From an uncultured Planctomycetia bacterium (GTDB lineage: Bacteria; Omnitrophota; Gorgyraeia; Duberdicusellales; 4484-171), in the NCBI GenBank assembly GCA_964635565.1, contig CAZWON010000003.1, positions 5,345-69,344 on the forward strand: a stretch of 64,000 nucleotides of DNA, given 5' to 3'. Both the position numbers and the translations under genes were made by a program. Positions 3,234 through 39,678 of this stretch are shown piece by piece (the stretch's first letter is position 1; the number at the start of each line of letters is the position of its first letter). Below the pieces are notes generated by a model. That model saw only the letters and a program-made list of their open reading frames with translations. It made no database searches and was not told the DNA's origin.

Positions 3234-4116
3234 GAAGACGCAGTGCTTCTCGATATTTCTCCTCTGTTTTTGCTACTATCTCTGGGGGAAGAGGTGGGGC
3301 AGGAGGGCTTTTGTCCCAATTAATATTCTCCAAGTAATCACGGACAAACTGTTTGTCAAAACTAATCTGTGGTCCCCCTGGCTTATATTTTTTCTTGGAC
3401 CAAAAACGAGAGGAATCAGGTGTTAATACCTCATCAATAAGTGTAAGTTGGTTATTAATGAGCCCAAATTCAAACTTAGTATCTGCTATAACAATTCCTC
3501 TTATAAATGCATAAATCCTTGCTCCCTTATATAACTGAATACTTATCTCTCTCATCTTCTGAACCAGAGTATTTCCCAGAAGCTGTTGGGCATTCTGGAA
3601 ATTAATATTCTCATCATGGCCATGTTCTGCTTTGCGTGCAGGAGTAAAGATTGGCTCAGAGAGCTTATCTGCCTCTCTTAACCCTTCAGGAAGCTTAATC
3701 CCGCATATCTCCCCTCTTTCCTTATATTCCCGCCAGGCAGAACCTGCTAAATAACCACGCACCACACACTCTAAAGGTATGGGCCGTGCTTTTCTTACTA
3801 TCATAGAACGACCTTTTAGTATATCAGCATATTTGGATAATTGCGGATACTTAGAAATATCAGAAGTAACAAAGTGATTAGGAGTAATCACACGAGAAAA
3901 ATTAAACCACAAACAGGATAGTTGGGTTAATACCTTTCCTTTGTTAGGAATACCTGTGGGTAGAACAACATCGAAGCAGGAAATTCTATCTGTAGCAACA
4001 ATAAGAAAATGTTTATCGTCAAGTTCATATATATCACGTACTTTACCCCGTTTAAAAAGCTTTAAATCTTTAAAATCAGTTGTAGAAACAATTTTTTCTG
4101 CCATGCTAAAACCCAT
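3211..4116 (-). CDS. purC: phosphoribosylaminoimidazole-succinocarboxamide (SAICAR) synthase
   Basis: GKVRDIYELDDKHFLIVATDRISCFDVVL motif typical of long-form PurC; 301 aa. Confidence 0.88.
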   Translation of the reverse strand: MGFSMAEKIVSTTDFKDLKLFKRGKVRDIYELDDKHFLIVATDRISCFDVVLPTGIPNKGKVLTQLSCLWFNFSRVITPNHFVTSDISKYPQLSKYADILKGRSMIVRKARPIPLECVVRGYLAGSAWREYKERGEICGIKLPEGLREADKLSEPIFTPARKAEHGHDENINFQNAQQLLGNTLVQKMREISIQLYKGARIYAFIRGIVIADTKFEFGLINNQLTLIDEVLTPDSSRFWSKKKYKPGGPQISFDKQFVRDYLENINWDKSPPAPPLPPEIVAKTEEKYREALRLLAGKDIE

Positions 4117-4420
4117 CTTAAATCCTTTTCAAAAAATAAACCAATATATTCATCGTTTTCCTCTTAAGAAGAAAAAATTTTTTGTGCCTTATGCATATTA
4201 AGAAGTATTAAAATTATCTTATCTTTTTCTTTATATATTATATTTTAGCGAAATTTTTAAGATACGCAAGACAAAGTAACCGAAACAAAGAAAAGTAAAG
4301 ACACATGGTATACAGATAAAACCTTTTCTTTGATAAGGAGCTATTTAAAAGGTTAAAAAGGAGCGCACTAAAAATCAAAGTTACTTCTAAAAAGCCCAAA
4401 ACAAAGAATACTCCTTTTCC

Positions 4421-4433
4421 TGAAAATCGGACT
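4421..4433. terminator. Short GC hairpin (cggac-ttt-gtccg) flanked by A/T runs; candidate bidirectional terminator in the 1 kb gene-poor spacer
   Basis: Perfect 5-bp stem with a 3-nt loop. aaaaatt follows on the plus strand; attttc follows on the minus strand. Confidence 0.25.
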
Positions 4434-5111
4434 TTGTCCGAAAAATTAAGAAAGATAAACAAAGTAAATAAAGAAAGTTAAATTTTAAAGGGAATTATTC
4501 AGTTTATCAGCCTTCTAATATAATAAATACACACTCTCTTTTTACCACCAACCCAAAAAAGAAATGGCAAAGATTTAAAGAATTTATAAAAAACAATACT
4601 TTCATAACACCCCAACCTCTTTCTTCCTGGAAAGATTATAGTAAATAATATCCTCTTTTGAAAAATCTGACCAAAAAGAAAGCTGGGGCTATGACTTATT
4701 ATACCATCTATTCAGGAATGATGAACTTTTTTGATTGCCGGCTTAAAATGATGCAGTTTGCTGATGAAGACTATATATTATCCTTAAGGGATAAACATCC
4801 ATCCTGGAGAGTGAATGTGAAAGTTTCAATAGTCAAGATGATTTCTTTGTTAAAGTCTATTCCTACCTTTTATTCTTTAACTATGAAAGAGAAAATACCA
4901 ATAAAGATAATAAATCCCCTTATCAGTTACTCAAAGAAAAAGAACCTCATTTAAATGATAAAATCTTGAATTTACCACCAATGAGGTTAGAATGGTTAGT
5001 TGAAGAAATGAAAGAGAGTAACGATTATAAAAGTGTATACCATCTACTTTTACTGTCCAAAGTAATCGAAACAAACTTGCCAGTATTAGAATATTCTCAT
5101 TCCTCCATCAT

Positions 5112-7094
5112 CTAATATATCTTTTCTATCTTTATATTTTTGTAGTAGTGTCTAAGAATATCTTTATAGCTATAGCCCTCTTCTGCCATCTGTATTGCTC
5201 CTTCTTGACACATTCCCACGCCATGACCAAAACCTCCCCCCCATATTAAAACAAGTTTAGGGAGTCGGTTTTTTTCTTCATTTGTATATTTTATTTCTAT
5301 AATGAAAGTACTGCTTCTTAGATTATCCCAGAAATTTCTTATATCTAAATCGCCCCTTAAGTCAATCACTTTATTACCTAAAACTATCTTCATCGCATCT
5401 ATATGACCACAATCTCCTCGTTTAACTATCTTGATATCTTTAATACTCTTAAGAGAAAAACCAAAAACCATTACAAAATCTTCCTCATCATAAATTCTTT
5501 GCCAGCGAAAATTGCTTTTGCGTTTCGTATAAGAACAAAAAGTTAAAGGATAAGATTTAAGCCAATTTTCTAAATTTTCCTTTAAAAAATAAGAAGTTCT
5601 CTTTTTTTCTAAGTCGTATTTGTTTTGGAGATACTGTTTCTTCCCAAATAAATCACTCCTTAAACATCCTCCACAATTAGAATGATAAAATGCTTCAATA
5701 GGTTTATCACCACAAAACATAACCTCTCCATATGTCTGGTTAACAGCTCTGATAGTCTCTTTTCTCTCACTACTCATCCCGCAATAAACCTGACAATGGA
5801 CAGTGCGACAAAAATCAAATCTTTTGTGTCTATACCCTTTACCCATATGTTTAACAATAAGCGTGCGTGCTGCTACTGCCTGGGCTTTTAATGCCTCTAA
5901 AGGAGCATAAGAATATATTTCGCTGGGTAAAATTCCATAAAGATACTCTTCTATATTTATCACATTAATAACAGTTAAAGTGTGGTGGTGACCAATAATC
6001 TCTAAACTACCTCTTAAAGATAAATCTCTGGTAGCTTCCCAGAAATTACCCTTCCCATAAATAGCCCCGAGAATATAAAAGGGATGATTCGTTGTCTTTA
6101 AATAGAGGGGCAATTTTATTTTTGTGATTATTTTATTATCCTCGTAGGTTTTAAGATAAGCCTCCCCCTTTTCTATCGTGATGGTATATAAAGTATCTTC
6201 TTTAAGAAGAAGATGATATTCGTTATCTTCTAAGATAATATTTCCTGAAGATTTAAAACTAACTGAATTCACTCCTTCCAAAATACCTATCCTGACCAAG
6301 GGAATATTATCCCCTAATGACTTGTAGGAAGTTAGTTTTATCTCTTTTCTCTTCTTTAAGAGTTGTTTCTTTTTTTGTAAAAAATACTCTTTACCGAGCA
6401 ATTTCTTAATATAAACTATATCTTGAGCAATCATCTTACTATGGGGATAGAAATTCTGTGCTTTAAGAAAATATCTATACGCAAAGGGAAAGTTTTTTTT
6501 CTTTAAATAGCACTTACCTAAATAATAATTGGCCAATCTTACACTGGGATCGTATTCTATCAGTCTACTAAAATACTTAATTGCCAAAGAATAATTCTTT
6601 CTCCGATAGAACATCTTTCCTAGCCTATACAATGCTATTGAATTATCTTCTAATTTTAAGGATCTCCGATAGTATTTAACTGCAGAAAAGAAATCTTTTA
6701 AATCCTCGTATATCAATCCTAAATAAATATAAACAAATACAGTAGGATGTTTATAAACTAAAGGTTTTAAAAGAGAAAGGGCCTTTTTACTTTCTCCTGT
6801 AAGATAATAAAGTTGAGATAATAAAAACTTCGTTTTATTATTCGTTTTTTTATCTGAGGATGAATTTAGTAATTTAATAGCTTCCTTATATTTCCTTTCC
6901 TCTTTATAATCAAATATCTTTTTTAGGTAAGTACCATCTTTATAGTCAATTTTTCTAAGATAATTCTCAATAATATCGGAGGAAAGATTATCCTTGTAGG
7001 TTTTAGAAAAAACCATCGAGAAAATAGAAGAGAATATAATAGAAAATAAAAAGAGTCTCCTGGGAATAATATTCTTATTCACGCATCTGGCCAT
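5112..7094 (-). CDS. Secreted TPR-repeat protein with a C-terminal SpoIID/LytB domain
   Basis: N-terminal signal peptide and multiple TPR-like repeats. C-terminal EALKAQAVAARTL...CRTVHCQVYCG...YHSNCGG matches SpoIID/LytB family motifs. Overlaps the downstream ORF by 20 nt. Confidence 0.72.
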   Translation of the reverse strand: MARCVNKNIIPRRLFLFSIIFSSIFSMVFSKTYKDNLSSDIIENYLRKIDYKDGTYLKKIFDYKEERKYKEAIKLLNSSSDKKTNNKTKFLLSQLYYLTGESKKALSLLKPLVYKHPTVFVYIYLGLIYEDLKDFFSAVKYYRRSLKLEDNSIALYRLGKMFYRRKNYSLAIKYFSRLIEYDPSVRLANYYLGKCYLKKKNFPFAYRYFLKAQNFYPHSKMIAQDIVYIKKLLGKEYFLQKKKQLLKKRKEIKLTSYKSLGDNIPLVRIGILEGVNSVSFKSSGNIILEDNEYHLLLKEDTLYTITIEKGEAYLKTYEDNKIITKIKLPLYLKTTNHPFYILGAIYGKGNFWEATRDLSLRGSLEIIGHHHTLTVINVINIEEYLYGILPSEIYSYAPLEALKAQAVAARTLIVKHMGKGYRHKRFDFCRTVHCQVYCGMSSERKETIRAVNQTYGEVMFCGDKPIEAFYHSNCGGCLRSDLFGKKQYLQNKYDLEKKRTSYFLKENLENWLKSYPLTFCSYTKRKSNFRWQRIYDEEDFVMVFGFSLKSIKDIKIVKRGDCGHIDAMKIVLGNKVIDLRGDLDIRNFWDNLRSSTFIIEIKYTNEEKNRLPKLVLIWGGGFGHGVGMCQEGAIQMAEEGYSYKDILRHYYKNIKIEKIY

Positions 7095-19916: not shown

Positions 19917-21188
19917 CTATTTACTCTTTTTTCTTTTAAAAACCCTTGCGGGTACTCCTACAACAATAGTATTTGATTTAACTGGTTTAGTTACTACCGA
20001 GCCTGCTCCTGTCATAGCACCTTCACCTATATTAGCAGGAGCCACAATTACTGTTCCCGAACCAATAAAGGCTCTTTTTCCTATAGTAGTATTGTGTTTT
20101 CTTTTGCCATCGTAGTTAGCAATAACTGTCCCTGCTCCAATATTGACAGCTTCGCCTACAGTAGTATCTCCTATGTAGCTAAAATGTTTCATTCTTACGT
20201 TTTTCTTAAGGACACTCCGGTTTATCTCCGTGAAATTACCAACTTTACTATTATCCTCTATTTTACTATGAGCACGAATGTGAGCAAAAGGCCCAACTAC
20301 ACAGTTGTTGCCAATTATAACATTTTTCTCAATAAAGGTAAAGGGATACACTATAGAATTTATCCCTATCTTTGTATCAAAACTTACAAATGTAGTCTCA
20401 GGATCAACAATAGAAACCCCTCTGCTCATAAGTTTCTCCAGAAATCTCTGATTTATAATTTTACGCACCAAGGCGAAATTTTTTTGAGTATTAACCCCCA
20501 GAATCTCCTCTTCATCATCTACAATAAAACTTTCTATCTTAAACCCTTTGTTATAAAAAATATTTATAATATCAGTAAGAAAAAACTCTCTCTTTTTTTT
20601 ATTTAATTTAATTTTACTTAATTCCTTAAAAAGAAAATTTTTCTTAAAACAATAAATTCCACTATTTACCTCTTCGTTATCTCTGCTTTTAATGTTTGTC
20701 TTCTCTATGATGGCTTTTATTCTATTAGATGAATCACGAATAACCTTCCCTAAATCACTTTTCTCTTTAAACAAAGCGGTAATAATAGCACAATCCGCAT
20801 CTTTTTTAAAGAAAAAATTTATAAATTTCTTCAACGTATCTTTTCTAATAAGAGGGGTATCGCCACATATAACTAAAAGATTTCTCTTTTCCTTCAGAAA
20901 ATCCTTAGTAGCCTCTACTGCTTTTGCTGTGCCATTTTGTCTTGGTTGCACTACAAAACGAACATTTCTAAATTTTCTGTAAACCACTTGCTGTATTTTT
21001 TCTCTTTTATGTCCTACAACGAGAAAAATTTCATCGATCATTTTTATAGAAGATAAAGTCTCTAAGATATAAAAAATAAGAGGTTTACCTCCTAAGTCTA
21101 AAAGAACTTTAGGAACATTTGTTCTTGTTCTTTTACTTTTCCCTGCCCCTAATACTACTGCTGTTACTTTTTTTACCATTGTCTCCAT
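19917..21188 (-). CDS. glmU: Bifunctional UDP-GlcNAc pyrophosphorylase / GlcN-1-P N-acetyltransferase
   Basis: N-terminal AVVLGAGKSKRTRTNVPKVL nucleotidyltransferase motif plus C-terminal hexapeptide-repeat acetyltransferase; 423 aa. Confidence 0.85.
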   Translation of the reverse strand: METMVKKVTAVVLGAGKSKRTRTNVPKVLLDLGGKPLIFYILETLSSIKMIDEIFLVVGHKREKIQQVVYRKFRNVRFVVQPRQNGTAKAVEATKDFLKEKRNLLVICGDTPLIRKDTLKKFINFFFKKDADCAIITALFKEKSDLGKVIRDSSNRIKAIIEKTNIKSRDNEEVNSGIYCFKKNFLFKELSKIKLNKKKREFFLTDIINIFYNKGFKIESFIVDDEEEILGVNTQKNFALVRKIINQRFLEKLMSRGVSIVDPETTFVSFDTKIGINSIVYPFTFIEKNVIIGNNCVVGPFAHIRAHSKIEDNSKVGNFTEINRSVLKKNVRMKHFSYIGDTTVGEAVNIGAGTVIANYDGKRKHNTTIGKRAFIGSGTVIVAPANIGEGAMTGAGSVVTKPVKSNTIVVGVPARVFKRKKSK

Positions 21189-21287
21189 TTAAAAACCAAG
21201 AGAAATTCTCTCTTATGTTTATATACAAAGTAAAGTGACATCTCTGAATCTGCTCTTTTTTATGCCTCTTTGGTATATTTACTCCTC

Positions 21288-21357
21288 TGCCCGGTGAGGA
21301 CTCGAACCTCAAAACCCAGATCCAAATTCTGGTGTGTTACCAATTACACCACCGGGC
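21288..21357 (-). tRNA. tRNA-Gln (anticodon UUG)
   Basis: Minus-strand sequence GCCCGGTGGTGTAATTGGTAACACACCAGAATTTGGATCTGGGTTTTGAGGTTCGAGTCCTCACCGGGCA. Acceptor stem GCCCGGT/ACCGGGC, D-stem GTGT/ACAC, anticodon stem CCAGA/TCTGG with loop ATTTGGA (anticodon TTG), T-arm GAGG-TTCGAGT-CCTC, discriminator A. CCA is not encoded. Confidence 0.8.
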
Positions 21358-21561
21358 AATAAAATTAAAACTCTTATTTCTAAAACCTGTTTTAAAAATC
21401 CCTAATACATCAGAACAAATCCTGCATCCGGTATGTTACCATTACACCCTACTCTCCCTCTTTTTTAAAAACTCAAAAAAACCATCTCAACGTAAAAATC
21501 TCCTTCTTCTAAAGGAAAGCGGGATATATATGCCCTGGTAATCTTTAGTACTTAAATCTTT

Positions 21562-30877: not shown

Positions 30878-31930
30878 CCCCTAACTTTACACATACCTTT
30901 CAAAAGTATATGTCAAGTTAACCCTCTAACTTTACATTTAACGTTCAAAAGGTTTTGTAAGGTTTTGTAAAATTAGTGTTTAAAGTGTTATAAATGCTTT
31001 GCCTTGACACATTAAGAATACAAGCGATATCTTTTATACTATATCCCCTTGATTTTAACTGTTCGATTAAATATCTTCGGGCTTGGAATTCATGTGGATG
31101 CTTGAGACGTTTTTTACTCATTACCCTCTCAATATCTACTGCTATATCATTCAAACTGTCTTTTTTTACTTTAAGAAAATTTCTTATTTTCCCAAAAAGC
31201 ATAAGAGAAAATTTCTCGGTAGCCCGATTATCCTCAATAACACTATTGATATTTAGTTTGTATGCTTTATCCATAATCTCCTCGTACATTAGAGAGGCTT
31301 TCCTAAGATCGCAACTTAGTAGCCCCAACACATATTCATAATTTATAAAAGTATTTTTAGGAAGTTTAGAATACGCAGATAAAGATGACCATCTATAATC
31401 TACAAGGGGATTTACTAATCTAGCTTTGTAGGGATTAAGATGAATATACACTGAAACAGTAATAAGATAATTATCATCCAAACATAAAAAGGCTTTATAA
31501 TTACTATAAAAAACATGCCCTTTTCTTTTATATTTGGAGTTAAAATAAAGAGCGTATTTTGTAAAAAGCGACTTCATACCTTCAGAAAGATTAGCACTGT
31601 TAATTTTAACCAGTAAATGAAGATGATTAGGCATAAGACAGAAACAATAAATATCAAAAGAAAACCTCAATTTAGTTTCTTTTAAAATATGAAGAAAGTA
31701 GAGATAGTCTCTATTTTCTAAGAAAAGGATGTCTTTACCTGTAGCTCGCTGAACTATATGATATACATAACCTGCGCAAATAATTTTTTGGTAAGGATTA
31801 GATACGTGCGCAGAGTTTTTTTCTTGTGGGTCCATAAAATATTAAAGGATTATCTCATCTCTTTATACAAAAATCAAGCCAAAATTTCCTAACTTGACAA
31901 AATCTTTTGAACGTTATGTGTCAAGTTAAA
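30878..31930 (-). mobile_element. REP-RAYT-REP-like unit: Y1 transposase gene bracketed by inverted imperfect palindromes
   Basis: Left flank hairpin tgtcaagtt-N8-aactttaca (30911-30936) followed by aacgttcaaaaggttttgt. Right flank hairpin aacttgaca-N19-tgtcaagtt (31892-31928) with cttttgaacgtt in its loop. The left block and the reverse complement of the right block match at about 26 of 30 nt. An extra ctaactttaca copy lies at 30881. Confidence 0.5.
30945..31835 (-). CDS. IS200-like Y1 tyrosine transposase (RAYT/COG1943-like) with a C-terminal DnaA-domain-IV-like HTH
   Basis: YHIVQRATGKDILF start, HxH motif MPNHLHLL, catalytic-Tyr region YIHLNPYKARLV plus YRWSS. C-terminal ~100 aa contain the HTH SIKDIACILNVSRQSIYNTL. 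Confidence 0.75.
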   Translation of the reverse strand: MDPQEKNSAHVSNPYQKIICAGYVYHIVQRATGKDILFLENRDYLYFLHILKETKLRFSFDIYCFCLMPNHLHLLVKINSANLSEGMKSLFTKYALYFNSKYKRKGHVFYSNYKAFLCLDDNYLITVSVYIHLNPYKARLVNPLVDYRWSSLSAYSKLPKNTFINYEYVLGLLSCDLRKASLMYEEIMDKAYKLNINSVIEDNRATEKFSLMLFGKIRNFLKVKKDSLNDIAVDIERVMSKKRLKHPHEFQARRYLIEQLKSRGYSIKDIACILNVSRQSIYNTLNTNFTKPYKTF

Positions 31931-35104: not shown

Positions 35105-36334
35105 CTAAGGCTGCATGGTAAAAAGCTCTTTTGCAATATCAGGATATTGAGCAATAAACTTCAATTCCTCTTCTACCAAAGGCTTCTGATTATGAACATT
35201 GGCATAACGCGCTAACTCTAAAATTTCTCTTGCTTCTTTATCATCCTTAAACTTTATTTCTAACTTCTCATAAACATTTCTAAAGCCTTTTATCCCCGAA
35301 TATTCTCCCACAGTAATTTTTCTTCCTGTATCAATAACTTCAGGCTCCCCTCTACCTAATTCTTCAAAATCATACAACTCATAATTTCTTCTATCCTTCA
35401 ACGTCCCATCTGCATGAATTCCTGACTCATGAGCAAAAGCATTAGCTCCTACTCCAGGATGGTTAATGGAGATAGGTATCCCAAAAGCATAGGAGGCATA
35501 TTTAGAAATACGCCAGGCCATTTTGAGATTAATGCGTTCATCTAAGTGGTAATTCTGCGTTCCGCTACCATATTTCAAGGCTAAAATTACACTCACCAGG
35601 TCCGCATTACCAGCACGTTCTCCTACACCATTTATGCAGGTATTGATATAAACATCTACCCCCCCTTCCAGAGCAGCTTTAGCTGCTGCCACAGAAGAAG
35701 CCACAGCAAGGCCCAAATCATTATGGCAATGCACCTCAATGCCAATTTTAACCTTATCCACAATATATCTTACCCTTTCATATATAGAAAATGGTGTATC
35801 AAACCCTAATGTATCGCAGTAACGAAACCGTTCTCCTCCTGCCTCTTTTGCTGCCTCTACAAACTCAACAAGATATTCTAACCGGCTACGAGAAGCATCT
35901 TCCGCATTAACTCCTACAGCTTTAGCACCTAACTTTTTGGCCAATTTTACCGCCTCTACCATACTTTTTATTACCCCATCATAATCTAATTTACCCTGAA
36001 ATTTGTGCTTAATCATCTGGTCAGAAGTAGAAATGGAAAGATTCAGATGTTCAAGATGTTTTACATTCCTAAAAGCCAGCTCTACATCCTGTTCTATAGC
36101 TCTTATCCATCCCGAAAGTCGCAAATTTTCAATTACTTTCTTCCGCTGTAGTTTCAGATTAGCATTGAGATAATTAATCTCATGATTAGTAGTAGGAAAA
36201 CCAAATTCACTCTGGAAAATCCCCATTTTATCCAAGTATATATTAATTATTGTTTTCTGCAATTTGGATAGACATATACGCGATGTCTGTACTCCATCCC
36301 GATTAGTAACATCAATAATATATATCTTTGGCAT
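35105..36334 (-). CDS. LeuA/NifV/CimA family (HMGL-like) synthase, short form without regulatory domain
   Basis: IIDVTNRDGVQ (DTTLRDGEQ-like), HCHNDLGLAVA, C-terminal subdomain resembling the homocitrate/citramalate synthase C-terminus; 409 aa. No leuBCD nearby. Confidence 0.6.
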   Translation of the reverse strand: MPKIYIIDVTNRDGVQTSRICLSKLQKTIINIYLDKMGIFQSEFGFPTTNHEINYLNANLKLQRKKVIENLRLSGWIRAIEQDVELAFRNVKHLEHLNLSISTSDQMIKHKFQGKLDYDGVIKSMVEAVKLAKKLGAKAVGVNAEDASRSRLEYLVEFVEAAKEAGGERFRYCDTLGFDTPFSIYERVRYIVDKVKIGIEVHCHNDLGLAVASSVAAAKAALEGGVDVYINTCINGVGERAGNADLVSVILALKYGSGTQNYHLDERINLKMAWRISKYASYAFGIPISINHPGVGANAFAHESGIHADGTLKDRRNYELYDFEELGRGEPEVIDTGRKITVGEYSGIKGFRNVYEKLEIKFKDDKEAREILELARYANVHNQKPLVEEELKFIAQYPDIAKELFTMQP

Positions 36335-36337
36335 CCT

Positions 36338-38086
36338 TCACCTCCTCAATAGCTCACTTAAATTCTCCTCTTTTATTTTATACGCTCTAAATATATACTT
36401 ATTATTTATTAATAAAGCTATTCCCTTATCTATCCCTAATTGAGAAATCAACTTATCATTGTCTTTAAGCATATTTTTTATTTTATTAGAATTTATGAAT
36501 CCTGCTATTTTTTTATAATCAATACCTAAACTATCCATCACTTCTACCCACCAACTGCTACTTATATTACTAAGACGCATCATAAGATAACTAAAGAACT
36601 TATCAGGATAAAGATACTTTACCGCTAACATTCTTTTTGTCTCTTCTTTCTCAAAAGATGCTTCTAAGGATTTATCTTCTTTAGGTGGGTAAATAAAATA
36701 AATATTTAAAGCTACCTTCTTCTTGTCACAAAAGTTTTTTAATTCTCTAAGTACACTGAAACAATTATGGTCATAAATACTAAAAAATACATCAATATTA
36801 TTTGGTATCTTTTTCCGATTAAGAAAAAGAAACATTCCTGAGAGATCATTTTTAATGAGAAATTTATCGCCTTTGTCTTCCAAAAAATTACTCACTTTAG
36901 AAAAAACATTTTCTTCCTCTATTGTTTTAGGAACAATAAAAGCAGGTAAATAATTTATACCATACTTTTTTATTAATTGTCGTGCTTCTTTAGTCCGATA
37001 ATCAATTATTCTAAAATTTACACCTGCAAATATTTTTTTAAGATATTCTTCTGTAAAACGTGTAACACAAAAAGAGCACTGCTTATCTGTAATAATGATA
37101 ATATCAATTTCTTTAGCTTCTACATAGATACAGCGAGCAAAAAGAGTACCCGGATTATCACATTGAACAACTAACCTTTCCTTAGAAGGGCAATCTTTAT
37201 CAGAAAAACATTGAGGGAAAAATTTTTTAATCTCTCTGTCCTCTTCTACTGTAAGAGGTAAAAGCTCCTTCTTTAAACTGTATTCTTCAATCCTGTTGTT
37301 TCTCATTTCAATATCTAAAATATCTAAACTCTTTGCTTCATAAGACGGCTTTAGAATTAACGTGTTATTAACCTTATTCTTAGAATATGCTGCCTTTCTA
37401 CCCCCTGAACTAATAATAAAACGTATATCTTTAAAATTATTAGCTATTTCTTCATTAATGTAATCAGGCATACTAGAAAGTAAAATAATAAAATCAACCT
37501 TATCTTTAATCTCCTTAACTACTTTTTCTAAAGAAATCCTATAATCTTTTTGGGAAAGATTATTCTTATTTAACACCTCTGAATCAGTAATACCTACGAT
37601 TCCTACTTTAGCACTGTGGATATCTTTTATAATATAAGCTCGTACCCCTTCTAGAGAGATATTACAAGAGACAAAAGGAAGGCTATATTTCTTAATAATC
37701 TCTTTAAGAAATTCAATACCGAAATTAAACTCTGCCTCGCCAATTGCAATAGCATCATACTTCAGCTTATTTAGAATCCTTAAGTAGTAAGTGGTTCTTT
37801 TTTTGTCTAAGCTTGCATTGATACGAGAAGAATCAAGAAATCCCCCTGCAGTAAAATTACCTGCATCAACAAGCAGTAAACTCTTTTCTTTCTTACGCAA
37901 GCGTTTAATAACTTTCGAGCGCCTCGTAACTCCTCCTGAACTACCAGGACAATAGCCACAAGGATATAAAGAGGAATAAGTATTGCCAGTGTAAACTATA
38001 GAAAGTCTCTCGCCAAAAAGAGGCAAACATATACCCCCACTAATCCAAAATATAACTATAATAACTATAATTTTTTTTATCGCCAT
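36338..38086 (-). CDS. Secreted or membrane-anchored hypothetical protein: 5'-nucleotidase-type metallophosphatase-like N-domain with substituted metal ligands plus thioredoxin-like CxxC region
   Basis: N-terminal TM/signal. SIVYTGNTYSSL...LLLVDAGNFTAGG...YDAIAIGEAEFNFG parallels the HTNDLHG...DAGDxxQG...GNHEF motifs of the 5'-NT/CapA family, but the D/H/N ligands are replaced. C-terminal part has CSFC and other Cys pairs. Confidence 0.4.
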   Translation of the reverse strand: MAIKKIIVIIVIFWISGGICLPLFGERLSIVYTGNTYSSLYPCGYCPGSSGGVTRRSKVIKRLRKKEKSLLLVDAGNFTAGGFLDSSRINASLDKKRTTYYLRILNKLKYDAIAIGEAEFNFGIEFLKEIIKKYSLPFVSCNISLEGVRAYIIKDIHSAKVGIVGITDSEVLNKNNLSQKDYRISLEKVVKEIKDKVDFIILLSSMPDYINEEIANNFKDIRFIISSGGRKAAYSKNKVNNTLILKPSYEAKSLDILDIEMRNNRIEEYSLKKELLPLTVEEDREIKKFFPQCFSDKDCPSKERLVVQCDNPGTLFARCIYVEAKEIDIIIITDKQCSFCVTRFTEEYLKKIFAGVNFRIIDYRTKEARQLIKKYGINYLPAFIVPKTIEEENVFSKVSNFLEDKGDKFLIKNDLSGMFLFLNRKKIPNNIDVFFSIYDHNCFSVLRELKNFCDKKKVALNIYFIYPPKEDKSLEASFEKEETKRMLAVKYLYPDKFFSYLMMRLSNISSSWWVEVMDSLGIDYKKIAGFINSNKIKNMLKDNDKLISQLGIDKGIALLINNKYIFRAYKIKEENLSELLRR

Positions 38087-38091
38087 ATTTT

Positions 38092-39678
38092 TTAATCCTT
38101 AAGTACAATGAATTTTAAAGAGATAATATTTGGATTTGCTTTAATATCATTTATAACATCCTCTTTTAAGGGGGTATCTACATTAAGAACGGTTATAGCC
38201 ATATTTTCTTTTTTCTTTCTCCCTAAACTCATATTAGCAATGTTAACGTTATGGTTACCCAGAACTGTACCTAAATTTCCTATAACCCCTGGTCTATCCT
38301 GATTCTTTACTACTACCATATATTCAGAAGGAGCTATTTCAATATACACATCATCCATTTTTACAAAACGTGCTTCTCTATTAGCAAAAAGAGTTCCTTC
38401 TAAAAGCCTTTCTTCCTTAGATGTTTTTACTTCCGCTCTTATAGAATTTACATACTCCTGTTCTCTATCTATCTTAACCTGCTCTATTTTTATTTTTCGT
38501 TCTTTGGCTATTCCTAAGGAATTAATATAATTTACATTTTCTTCCAAAATAGTAGAAAGAAATCCTTTGGTAAATGCCATAGTAAGAGGATCCACCTTAA
38601 AAGAAGCAATTTCACCTATATAATAAATCTTAATCTCTTGAGTTGCTCCACTAACTAATTGGGAAAGAAACTTACCCATTTTCTCTGCCAAAACTATATA
38701 GGGAAAAACAACTTTATAAACTTCAGGCTCCATCTGAACATAATTTACAGCATTACGAATAGCTTTCCCCAGCAAAGCATCTTTTATACAATGAGCGATT
38801 TCTACTGCAACATTTACTTGAGCTTCCTGCGTCGATGCTCCCAGATGAGGAGTAACCACGATGTTGTCTAACTCCAGAAGTTTAGAATCTACGGGAGGTT
38901 CTTTCTCAAAAACATCTAATGCTGCCCCAGAAATTTTCTTATCCTTCAGAAATTTATAAAGTGCCTCTTCATCTATTATCCCTCCCCGAGCACAATTAAT
39001 GATAAATGCTGTAGGTTTCATTAAAGATAACTCTTTATAAGAAATTAATCCTTTTGTCTCACCTGTTAAAGGGGTGTGAATTGTGACAATATCAGATTTT
39101 CTTAGTAACTCTTCTAATGCTACAATCTTAACTCCGATACTATCTGCTACTTCTTGAGTAATAAAAGGGTCACAAGTTAAAACTTCCATACCAAAAGCAC
39201 TTGCTCTTTTAGCAACCTCTTTTCCTATACGACCTAATCCAATAATCCCCAATATCTTACCATATATTTCTGTTCCTTTAAATTTAGAACGGTTCCAATC
39301 TCCTTTTTTAAGAGAAAAATGACCAAAAGGAACTTTCCGTGCTAAAGATAAAATAAGAGCAAATGTATGTTCACACGTAGAAATGGTATTTCCACCAGGA
39401 GCATTCATAACAATAATACCTTTCTTAGTAGCTGTAAGAACATCTACATTATCCAAACCCACACCTGCTCTCCCAATCACTTTAAGAGACGAAGCTCTTT
39501 CAATTACATCGCTGGTTAGTTTAGTCTGACTACGGACGATAATCGCTTCATAATCTTTAATAACCTTCATCAACTCTTCCTTATCTAAACCTATTTTGCA
39601 ATCTACCTCAAAACCACTGTCTTTTAATATATCTATCCCTTCATGAGCCAACTTATCAGCCACCAAAACTTTCGCCAT
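38092..39678 (-). CDS. serA: D-3-phosphoglycerate dehydrogenase with C-terminal ACT domain
   Basis: [10 protein letters not shown]...[12 protein letters not shown]...[10 protein letters not shown] Rossmann motif; 528 aa. Confidence 0.9.

Follow-up and report, generated by a model that had tools for sequence, protein, structure and literature searches.

The 64,000-nucleotide stretch of DNA analysed here (the window), from contig CAZWON010000003.1 of an uncultured bacterium of the Omnitrophota, encodes on its minus strand a predicted periplasmic multidomain protein in which a degenerate phosphatase domain is joined to a thioredoxin-like and DsbA-like module. A single open reading frame (ORF) in the ORF list fills positions 36338–38086 exactly and has a product of 582 amino acids. 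The gene begins 5 nucleotides after the stop codon of serA (TAA at 38092–38094), and a gap of 3 nucleotides separates its end from the gene of an HMGL-like synthase. The same protein, identical, is on record from further public contigs and sources. A word-indexed search identified 34 full-length orthologs with 31–57% identity, nearly all of them from metagenome-assembled genomes (MAGs) of Candidatus Omnitrophota. The AlphaFold2 (AF2) model of the whole protein, built from 34 orthologs, has a mean predicted local distance difference test score (pLDDT) of 90.6, and a separate model of the C-terminal half (residues 283–582) has a pLDDT of 91.8 and a predicted template modelling score (pTM) of 0.81. 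The gene contains the following elements.

36338–38086, minus strand: whole gene, 582 codons and a stop codon, encoding in this order the signal, an N-terminal domain (N), a four-cysteine connector (C4), a thioredoxin-like domain (TRX) and a DsbA-like domain (DSBA)
38096–38100, minus strand: ribosome-binding site AAGGA, read from the sequence, 9 nucleotides 5' of the ATG and within the last serA codons
38012–38086, minus strand: Sec-type signal peptide or signal anchor, residues 1–25, MAIKK followed by 18 hydrophobic residues and LFG before ER
37241–38011, minus strand: UshA/5'-nucleotidase-like metallophosphatase-fold domain, residues 26–282, with no canonical metal ligand left (NCBIfam, phmmer and Foldseek)
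37949–37960, minus strand: C-G-Y-C dithiol, residues 43–46, in the loop after motif I, with C46 in the selenocysteine column
37115–37225, minus strand: connector with four invariant cysteines, residues 288–324, C293-x5-C299-x9-C309-x9-C319, a short helix and a beta-hairpin in the AF2 model
36812–37114, minus strand: thioredoxin-like domain, residues 325–425, most similar to a glutaredoxin/PDO-type unit
37067–37078, minus strand: C-S-F-C active-site motif, residues 337–340, family consensus C-x-F-C
36341–36811, minus strand: DsbA-fold domain, residues 426–582, a thioredoxin fold with a four-helix insertion and without CxxC

The modelled N-terminal domain has the fold of 5'-nucleotidase metallophosphatases, as the preliminary description of the locus had proposed. 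Foldseek matches the AF2 model to CD73 (E 7.5e-20), and the N-terminal domains of CD73, UshA, YfkN and the Thermus 5'-nucleotidase (2z1a) are matched at about 1e-19 over about 300 columns. The NCBIfam model NF041198, "UshA-like (seleno)protein", matches the domain with an E-value of 1.2e-43 and 149.5 bits, SoxB and many 5'-nucleotidase and cyclic phosphodiesterase models from NCBIfam match at 1e-17 to 1e-9, and solved 5'-nucleotidases in the PDB are found by phmmer at 3e-10. The structural motifs GGxxRR, YDA and SxN are kept. Pfam Metallophos does not match the protein even at E ≤ 10, and Pfam gives no match to PF02872, the C-terminal substrate-binding domain of 5'-nucleotidases. A likeness to CapA, which had also been suggested, was dropped; its sole support is a 16.9-bit PGA_cap match on a distant relative.

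The residues that bind metal in this fold have been replaced throughout. HMMER alignments to snake-venom and human 5'-nucleotidases pair LSIVYTGNTYSS of motif I with LTILHTNDVHAR, DAGNFTAGG with DAGDQYQGT, and GEAEFNFG with GNHEFDNG, which reproduces the three replaced blocks (xHTNDxHG, DAGDxxQG and GNHEFD) named in the preliminary description. The later histidine motifs ALGH and VVGGHS read LLSS and IISSGG. The ligand and catalytic positions of CD73 map onto the window protein as follows.

CD73 D36: window N35
CD73 H38: window Y37
CD73 D85: window N77
CD73 N117: window E117
CD73 H118: window A118
CD73 H220: window S205
CD73 H243: window G228

The canonical residue is kept at none of the seven positions, and the same is true across the orthologs. 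The earlier claim that all metal ligands are substituted thus holds at every mapped position, with the two later histidine motifs lost as well. Orthologs with canonical D, H or N ligands had been named as a possible sign of a sequencing error in the window; however, the Omnitrophota orthologs share the substitutions, and these together with the identical copies exclude both a sequencing error and a pseudogene. Several replacements are themselves conserved among the orthologs: N35 in 26/33, Y37 in 25/33, N77 in 30/34, N121 in 27/34, S204 in 33/34 and G228 in 27/34, with positions 117, 118 and 205 variable. The mean pairwise identity of orthologs is 0.427 in the N-terminal domain, 0.400 in the thioredoxin-like domain and 0.359 in the DsbA-like domain. 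Because of this higher identity and the conserved replacement residues, the N-terminal domain is judged to be under purifying selection and not decaying.

The loop following motif I carries the cysteine pair of the CGYCPG segment that had been singled out from the sequence, and C43 and C46 are kept in 33 and 32 of the 34 orthologs, respectively. The pair lies in the ten-residue block with the lowest pLDDT of the domain (69). A family of UshA-like (COG0737) selenoproteins with a CxU motif has been described (PMC2398784), and a later catalogue distinguishes NF041198, with CxU, from a second family, NF049981, with CxxU (PMC13188914). The relation of the window protein to these selenoproteins can be followed at a Desulfolithobacter locus (L005:3791–5419). 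The 'UshA-like (seleno)protein' gene called there by NCBI (472 residues, 4001–5419) is truncated at its N-terminus, and its true start is a 52-codon ORF (3791–3949) that encodes a signal peptide and motif I and is joined through an in-frame TGA codon for selenocysteine in PCG-U. Reading through the TGA gives a signal peptide and then FFYSNDIRGETEPCG, selenocysteine and KSKQLGGLSRK, so that the surroundings of the selenocysteine are EPCG-U-KSKQLGGLSRK. In a MAFFT alignment of N-terminal domains, this selenocysteine occupies the C46 column and the cysteine preceding it the C43 column; the CxC and CxU forms have one residue fewer, and P-C-G-Y-C of the window aligns with P-C-G-U/C through a one-residue insertion. 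The distant orthologs P0030–P0034 carry CxC. Three further distant matches, P0036–P0038, start just downstream of the expected position of the cysteine loop and have four CxxCH heme motifs at their C-terminal end.

Because C46 corresponds to the selenocysteine of UshA-like selenoproteins, it is a probable redox residue, and the alignment favours a redox role for the C43/C46 pair. The preliminary description had left a choice between a dead binding module and a redox-regulated envelope protein; both are still candidate explanations, and the correspondence leans towards the redox role of the pair. It had further considered a novel family. Judged by its sequence, the N-terminal domain is instead a Cys-type relative of catalogued, functionally uncharacterised UshA-like selenoproteins (NF041198 and NF049981), not a new fold family.

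The C-terminal half had been described as one thioredoxin/DsbA-like region. Pfam, profile and Foldseek comparisons bear out both likenesses; however, the half is divided into three units. The connector precedes the other two, and 146 of the 147 instances of this domain in the superfamily have CCCC in its four cysteine columns; these cysteines most likely form two structural disulfides. The CSFC motif and the further cysteine pairs that had been noticed in this half are thus well conserved, with C337 and C340 each present in 33 of the 34 orthologs and C293, C299, C309 and C319 invariant. In the thioredoxin-like domain, a strand (327–333) is followed by CSFC, a helix (343–352), and P381 before a strand (382–386), an order that fits the thioredoxin fold. 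P381, which aligns with the cis-proline position of thioredoxins, is present in 34/34 orthologs. The model therefore displays the features of the fold, a CxxC where helix 1 begins and a proline before strand 3. The family profile matches the first unit of the Pyrococcus PDO (1a8l/1j08) at E 0.0025–0.005, pairing the CxxC with CQYC and LPAF with APAT, and it matches thioredoxins at 0.01–0.05. In the ortholog P0009, C-x-F-C is replaced by W-K-F-C, and two more proteins with a CxxC-type N-terminal domain keep the second cysteine only.

The last domain is matched by Foldseek to dozens of DsbA structures from E. coli, Vibrio and others (E 5e-6, about 175 columns, target-normalised TM-score 0.6), and the family profile matches BdbD at E 0.02. 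The order of helices and strands predicted by AF2 is in keeping with a DsbA fold. The position of the DsbA CxxC reads Y-D-H-N in the window protein and is not conserved in orthologs, and in the window protein the domain has no cis-proline. All matches of the C-terminal half to Pfam and NCBIfam models stay below cutoff.

Export of the protein, which the preliminary description had called secreted, is supported by the orthologs. Their N-termini have the n-h-c layout 'MKK + hydrophobic + (V/S/A)YA' before H, all complete ones have a signal peptide, and none has a twin-arginine (RR) motif. Residues 3–18 are predicted by AF2 to be helical. No lipobox cysteine is conserved among the orthologs; a lipoprotein was dismissed because C20 is not conserved and the lipobox is absent.

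The gene has a fixed place in the genome. A species-level locus scan with a 15-sequence subset of the orthologs and one genome per GTDB species gave 20 loci, all from MAGs, of which 15 are labelled Candidatus Omnitrophota, 4 carry the automatic label 'Planctomycetia' and 1 is a 'bacterium'. The conserved block kdsD-kdsC-lptC-lptB-tig-clpP-aminotransferase-serA-X-HMGL-like-purA, with the gene in position X, is kept even for orthologs of 31% identity. The slot serA-X-HMGL-purA is where all 34 full-length orthologs lie. In locus L007, the position is occupied by a 297-residue protein consisting of a signal, a thioredoxin-like domain with CSFC and a DsbA-like domain, which is encoded 3 nucleotides after serA and before the HMGL-like gene and purA. 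In L028, the same slot holds a 318-residue protein with a signal, the connector, and the thioredoxin-like and DsbA-like domains. Proteins of this kind are not fragments, because 25 of 34 representatives without the N-terminal domain begin with methionine and carry their own hydrophobic leader. Therefore, the N-terminal domain is accessory, and the thioredoxin/DsbA module, which had been treated as an appendage, is the conserved core of the locus. Most lineages have kept the added pseudo-phosphatase domain, and in them it is well conserved.

The module extends far beyond these orthologs. An exhaustive HMMER search with a C-terminal profile (residues 283–582 of the window protein, 36341–37240 on the minus strand) matched 2,383 representatives of clusters at 50% identity with E ≤ 1e-3, 389 of them with E ≤ 1e-30. 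None of the members scanned reaches a Pfam or NCBIfam cutoff over the connector, thioredoxin-like and DsbA-like module. A census of 185 sequences with hidden Markov models of the four sub-domains found these architectures.

N-C4-TRX-DSBA: 95 sequences
DSBA-C4-TRX-DSBA: 30 sequences
TRX-DSBA: 27 sequences
N-DSBA-C4-TRX-DSBA: 12 sequences
C4-TRX-DSBA: 7 sequences
N-DSBA-C4-TRX-DSBA-N with a tetraheme cytochrome: 1 sequence, P0157, of 1,207 residues

Some members consist of the module by itself; in others it is duplicated together with GILT/DsbA-like domains, follows Ig-like DUF1573 domains, or is combined with multiheme cytochromes. P0157 (L006:215–3838) is composed of an UshA-like domain with PCECP, a GILT/DsbA-like domain, the four-cysteine, thioredoxin-like and DsbA-like module, a second UshA-like domain with ACGCPG, and a tetraheme cytochrome c. 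Its second half scores 376 bits, above the cutoff of NF041198. Because both stand in one chain, P0157 joins the thioredoxin-type and cytochrome-type architectures.

The N-terminal domain exists in two forms. The Omnitrophota form has CxxC and no histidine at the ligand positions, and the broader form has CxC and keeps E-x-H, D-E-E, S-H and G-H-R. In CxC-type domains such as P0084, P0100, P0128 and P0157, three histidines and acidic residues are retained (E-x-H, D-E-E-N, S-H and x-G-H-R) and the bridging aspartate is lost. Unlike the fully metal-free Omnitrophota form, the CxC-type domains may have a remodelled mononuclear metal site beside the CxC/CxU loop. The CxxC of the thioredoxin-like domain is intact in 43 of the 46 proteins with a CxxC-type N-terminal domain. 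In L029 (5635–8441 and 11106–12631), the gene of the CxC-type protein P0128 (793 residues) is followed after 3 nucleotides by a rhodanese gene, and genes for a NosD-like beta-helix protein and two c3 cytochromes lie near it. A conserved link to rhodanese was rejected, since it is seen once, in L029, and not in L030/L031, where the neighbour is AhpC/Redoxin-like, nor in L032.

These features suggest, with somewhat better than even confidence, that the protein is a periplasmic thiol-disulfide oxidoreductase to which a pseudo-phosphatase domain with a dithiol of its own has been added. After Sec-dependent export, it would work by a logic like that of PDI and DsbC. The catalytic unit would be the thioredoxin-like domain, with C337-x-F-C340 where the first helix begins, facing P381, whereas the DsbA-fold domain without CxxC would probably be a non-catalytic substrate-binding or scaffold domain, and the connector would be stapled by disulfides. 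The N-terminal domain would no longer bind a dimetal centre or hydrolyse phosphoesters; its second dithiol, C43/C46, would sit on a flexible loop beside the former active site, so that the domain could contribute a second redox-active dithiol, a binding pocket, or both. The CxxC of the thioredoxin-like domain may exchange electrons with the dithiol of the N-terminal domain, or work alongside it, on a substrate in the envelope. We infer the redox activity of both motifs, the coupling of the two sites and the disulfide state of the four connector cysteines; depending on the direction of electron flow, the protein would be an oxidase, a reductase or an isomerase. Such cooperation is suggested because the partner of the selenoprotein domain is a tetraheme cytochrome c and here is a thioredoxin/DsbA module; this swap of partner modules between the NF041198 relatives and the window protein supports the oxidoreductase. 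It is also supported by the existence of the thioredoxin/DsbA module as an autonomous secreted protein, in the representatives lacking the N-terminal domain, two of them in the same genomic slot.

Several observations weigh against a thiol-disulfide oxidoreductase of this kind. The matches of the thioredoxin-like domain are weak in PDB sequences (E about 0.003) and below the Pfam cutoff for Thioredoxin_8 (14 bits where 27 are required, E 0.066), and Pfam DSBA (PF01323) scores 20.4 bits (E 4.7e-4), also below its cutoff of 25.6. About 10 of 110 N-terminal domains lack the cysteine pair, yet the CxxC of the thioredoxin-like domain is mostly kept; conversely, 16 CxC-type relatives lack the latter motif. 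Each cysteine motif can thus occur without the other, and the two sites do not depend strictly on each other. The conserved neighbours are housekeeping genes, which provide no functional pointer. Finally, selenocysteine can also serve as a metal ligand, and its correspondence to cysteine is no proof of thiol-disulfide chemistry.

A possible though rather unlikely alternative is that the N-terminal domain is a non-catalytic pseudoenzyme that binds a ligand or protein or acts as a scaffold, and that all cysteines outside the CxxC of the thioredoxin-like domain, C43 and C46 included, form structural disulfides. The domain is dispensable in some lineages, about 9% of N-terminal domains lack the cysteine pair though they are otherwise conserved, and N35, Y37, N77 and N121 of the former pocket are conserved, as they would be in a binding pocket. 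Vertebrate ecto-5'-nucleotidases also have two cysteines in this loop (GKCSGEDCYGGVARR), the first of which pairs with C46; in human CD73 the two form a structural disulfide. However, C46 stands in the selenocysteine column of homologous selenoproteins, and structural disulfides do not use selenocysteine. The CxxC or CxC spacing is kept over very wide divergence, and the loop is the least confidently modelled part of the domain, as would suit a mobile segment better than a rigid staple. A more far-reaching reading, considered unlikely, is that the metallophosphatase fold has turned into a metal-free Cys/selenocysteine redox catalyst. The C43/C46 loop would then act on a small substrate bound in the former phosphate pocket, now bordered by the conserved N35, Y37, N77 and N121, and the site would be recharged by the fused electron module, thioredoxin/DsbA here and tetraheme cytochrome c in the selenoproteins. 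Such a catalyst would parallel the arsenate reductases that arose from phosphatase folds and, if real, would represent a new enzyme class and provide a function for the orphan UshA-like selenoproteins.

It is distinctly improbable that C43/C46, the connector cysteines or both bind Zn, Fe, Cu or Fe-S in a metallochaperone or electron-transfer protein. The invariance of the connector cysteines in 146/147 instances would suit such a site, and the three histidines and acidic residues of the CxC relatives, which have cytochromes fused to them or encoded nearby, fit a remodelled metal centre containing cysteine or selenocysteine. However, the window protein and its Omnitrophota orthologs lack those histidines (Y37, S205 and G228), the C-x5-C-x9-C-x9-C spacing is not that of a classical zinc ribbon or rubredoxin, and export of the Sec and not the Tat type argues against pre-assembled Fe-S cofactors. 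A cysteine metal site is more plausible for the histidine-retaining CxC relatives than for the window protein. The position directly downstream of serA and a class-V aminotransferase gene, with a gap of 5 nucleotides (an overlap of 4 nucleotides in L004), and the phosphatase fold raise the question of an active phosphoesterase with a non-canonical site, such as the phosphoserine phosphatase that the adjacent serA and aminotransferase genes lack. An active phosphoesterase is extremely improbable: the protein carries an export signal, none of the mapped ligands is canonical, the catalytic histidine is replaced, and positions 117, 118 and 205 are not conserved. The same slot in L007 and L028 lacks a phosphatase-like domain, and the block is a mixture of housekeeping genes (kdsD, kdsC, lptC, lptB, tig, clpP and purA). 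The phosphoserine phosphatase itself was ruled out, as the protein has an export signal and no longer has the catalytic residues, and as proteins without the N-terminal domain occupy this slot elsewhere.

The HMGL-like gene that adjoins the target downstream (35105–36334, minus strand) encodes a 409-residue protein with HMGL-like and HCS_D2 domains, similar to homocitrate and citramalate synthases, and Pfam reports in it no C-terminal regulatory domain of the LeuA type. This neighbour is present beside the target in most orthologous loci and absent in L003. Beyond purA, the gene order of the window differs, with GT9, GT2, a transposase and a BNR/sortilin-like protein; in L002 and L003, of three orthologous loci that were inspected, the gene after purA is that of an H+-pyrophosphatase. 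The transposase, a few genes downstream of purA (30945–31835, minus strand), is IS200-like, of the Y1 type with a C-terminal helix-turn-helix (Pfam Y1_Tnp, E 3e-12). Gene co-orientation in the window is extreme: all ORFs of at least 150 residues in positions 1–64000 lie on the minus strand except 20094–20606 (plus strand), which overlaps a longer minus-strand ORF. In each 2-kb bin the GC skew is below zero (−0.12 to −0.40), and the cumulative curve is monotonic. A single tRNA gene at 21287–21358 (minus strand) is the only match in the window at the Rfam gathering threshold.

The protein is best described as a new architecture that combines known kinds of domains and satisfies the full definition of no named family. 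It lies outside every named family because it scores below the cutoffs of NF041198 and NF049981 and lacks a cytochrome, metal ligands, PF02872, and a CxxC in its DsbA domain. In the literature searched, no published account of this architecture was found. The 'COG0737 UshA-like, CxU' selenoproteins were reportedly listed by Zhang and Gladyshev in 2008. These proteins, listed since 2008 without an assigned function, now have beside them a Cys-type, experimentally tractable relative, and the degenerate phosphatase domain can be argued to be a redox component because its partner module is a cytochrome or thioredoxin/DsbA. The gene belongs to the envelope functions of Candidatus Omnitrophota, where it is phylum-wide, being present in all genomes sampled, and syntenically fixed; the phylum is not known to have a cultured, genetically tractable member. 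The four-cysteine, thioredoxin-like and DsbA-like module, with 2,383 representatives and no match above cutoff among those scanned, is a clear candidate for the definition of a new domain family.

The closest catalogued relatives are the members of NF041198, the profile of which aligns at positions 22–285 of 519 with residues 26–278 of the homologous N-terminal domain. Like the window protein, they are exported and functionally uncharacterised, and have degenerate metallophosphatase motifs and a cysteine pair in the same loop. By contrast, the 149.5 bits of the window protein fall below the cutoff of 275 bits, its motif is CxxC and not CxU or CxC, and it has no selenocysteine. Profile positions 286–519, a tetraheme cytochrome c in the members examined, are unmatched, and the four-cysteine, thioredoxin-like and DsbA-like module stands in their place; the translation of the window protein contains no CxxCH motif, and it is thus not a multiheme cytochrome c. 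NF049981 matches residues 28–268 at profile positions 1–231 of 262 (E 1.8e-14), and its published motif has the same two-residue spacing, CxxU as compared with CxxC (PMC13188914). However, the match, at 53.8 bits, misses the cutoff of 140 bits by a wide margin, and this second family is a stand-alone domain of about 262 residues.

The N-terminal domain of the window protein is folded like the 5'-nucleotidases CD73 and UshA and has all five motif blocks in the same order, but its metal ligands and catalytic histidine are replaced and the protein has no PF02872 domain. PDO (1a8l), DsbA, BdbD and PDI resemble its C-terminal half in that a catalytic-looking thioredoxin unit with CxxC and proline is followed by a second thioredoxin-fold unit of the DsbA type. 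The sequence similarity is marginal (E 0.003–0.02), and the window protein adds the four-cysteine connector and the pseudo-phosphatase domain. Unlike DsbA, which has its CxxC in the DsbA domain, the window protein has a DsbA-fold domain without CxxC and cis-proline. Its mix of catalytic and non-catalytic thioredoxin-fold domains resembles the a and b domains of PDI.

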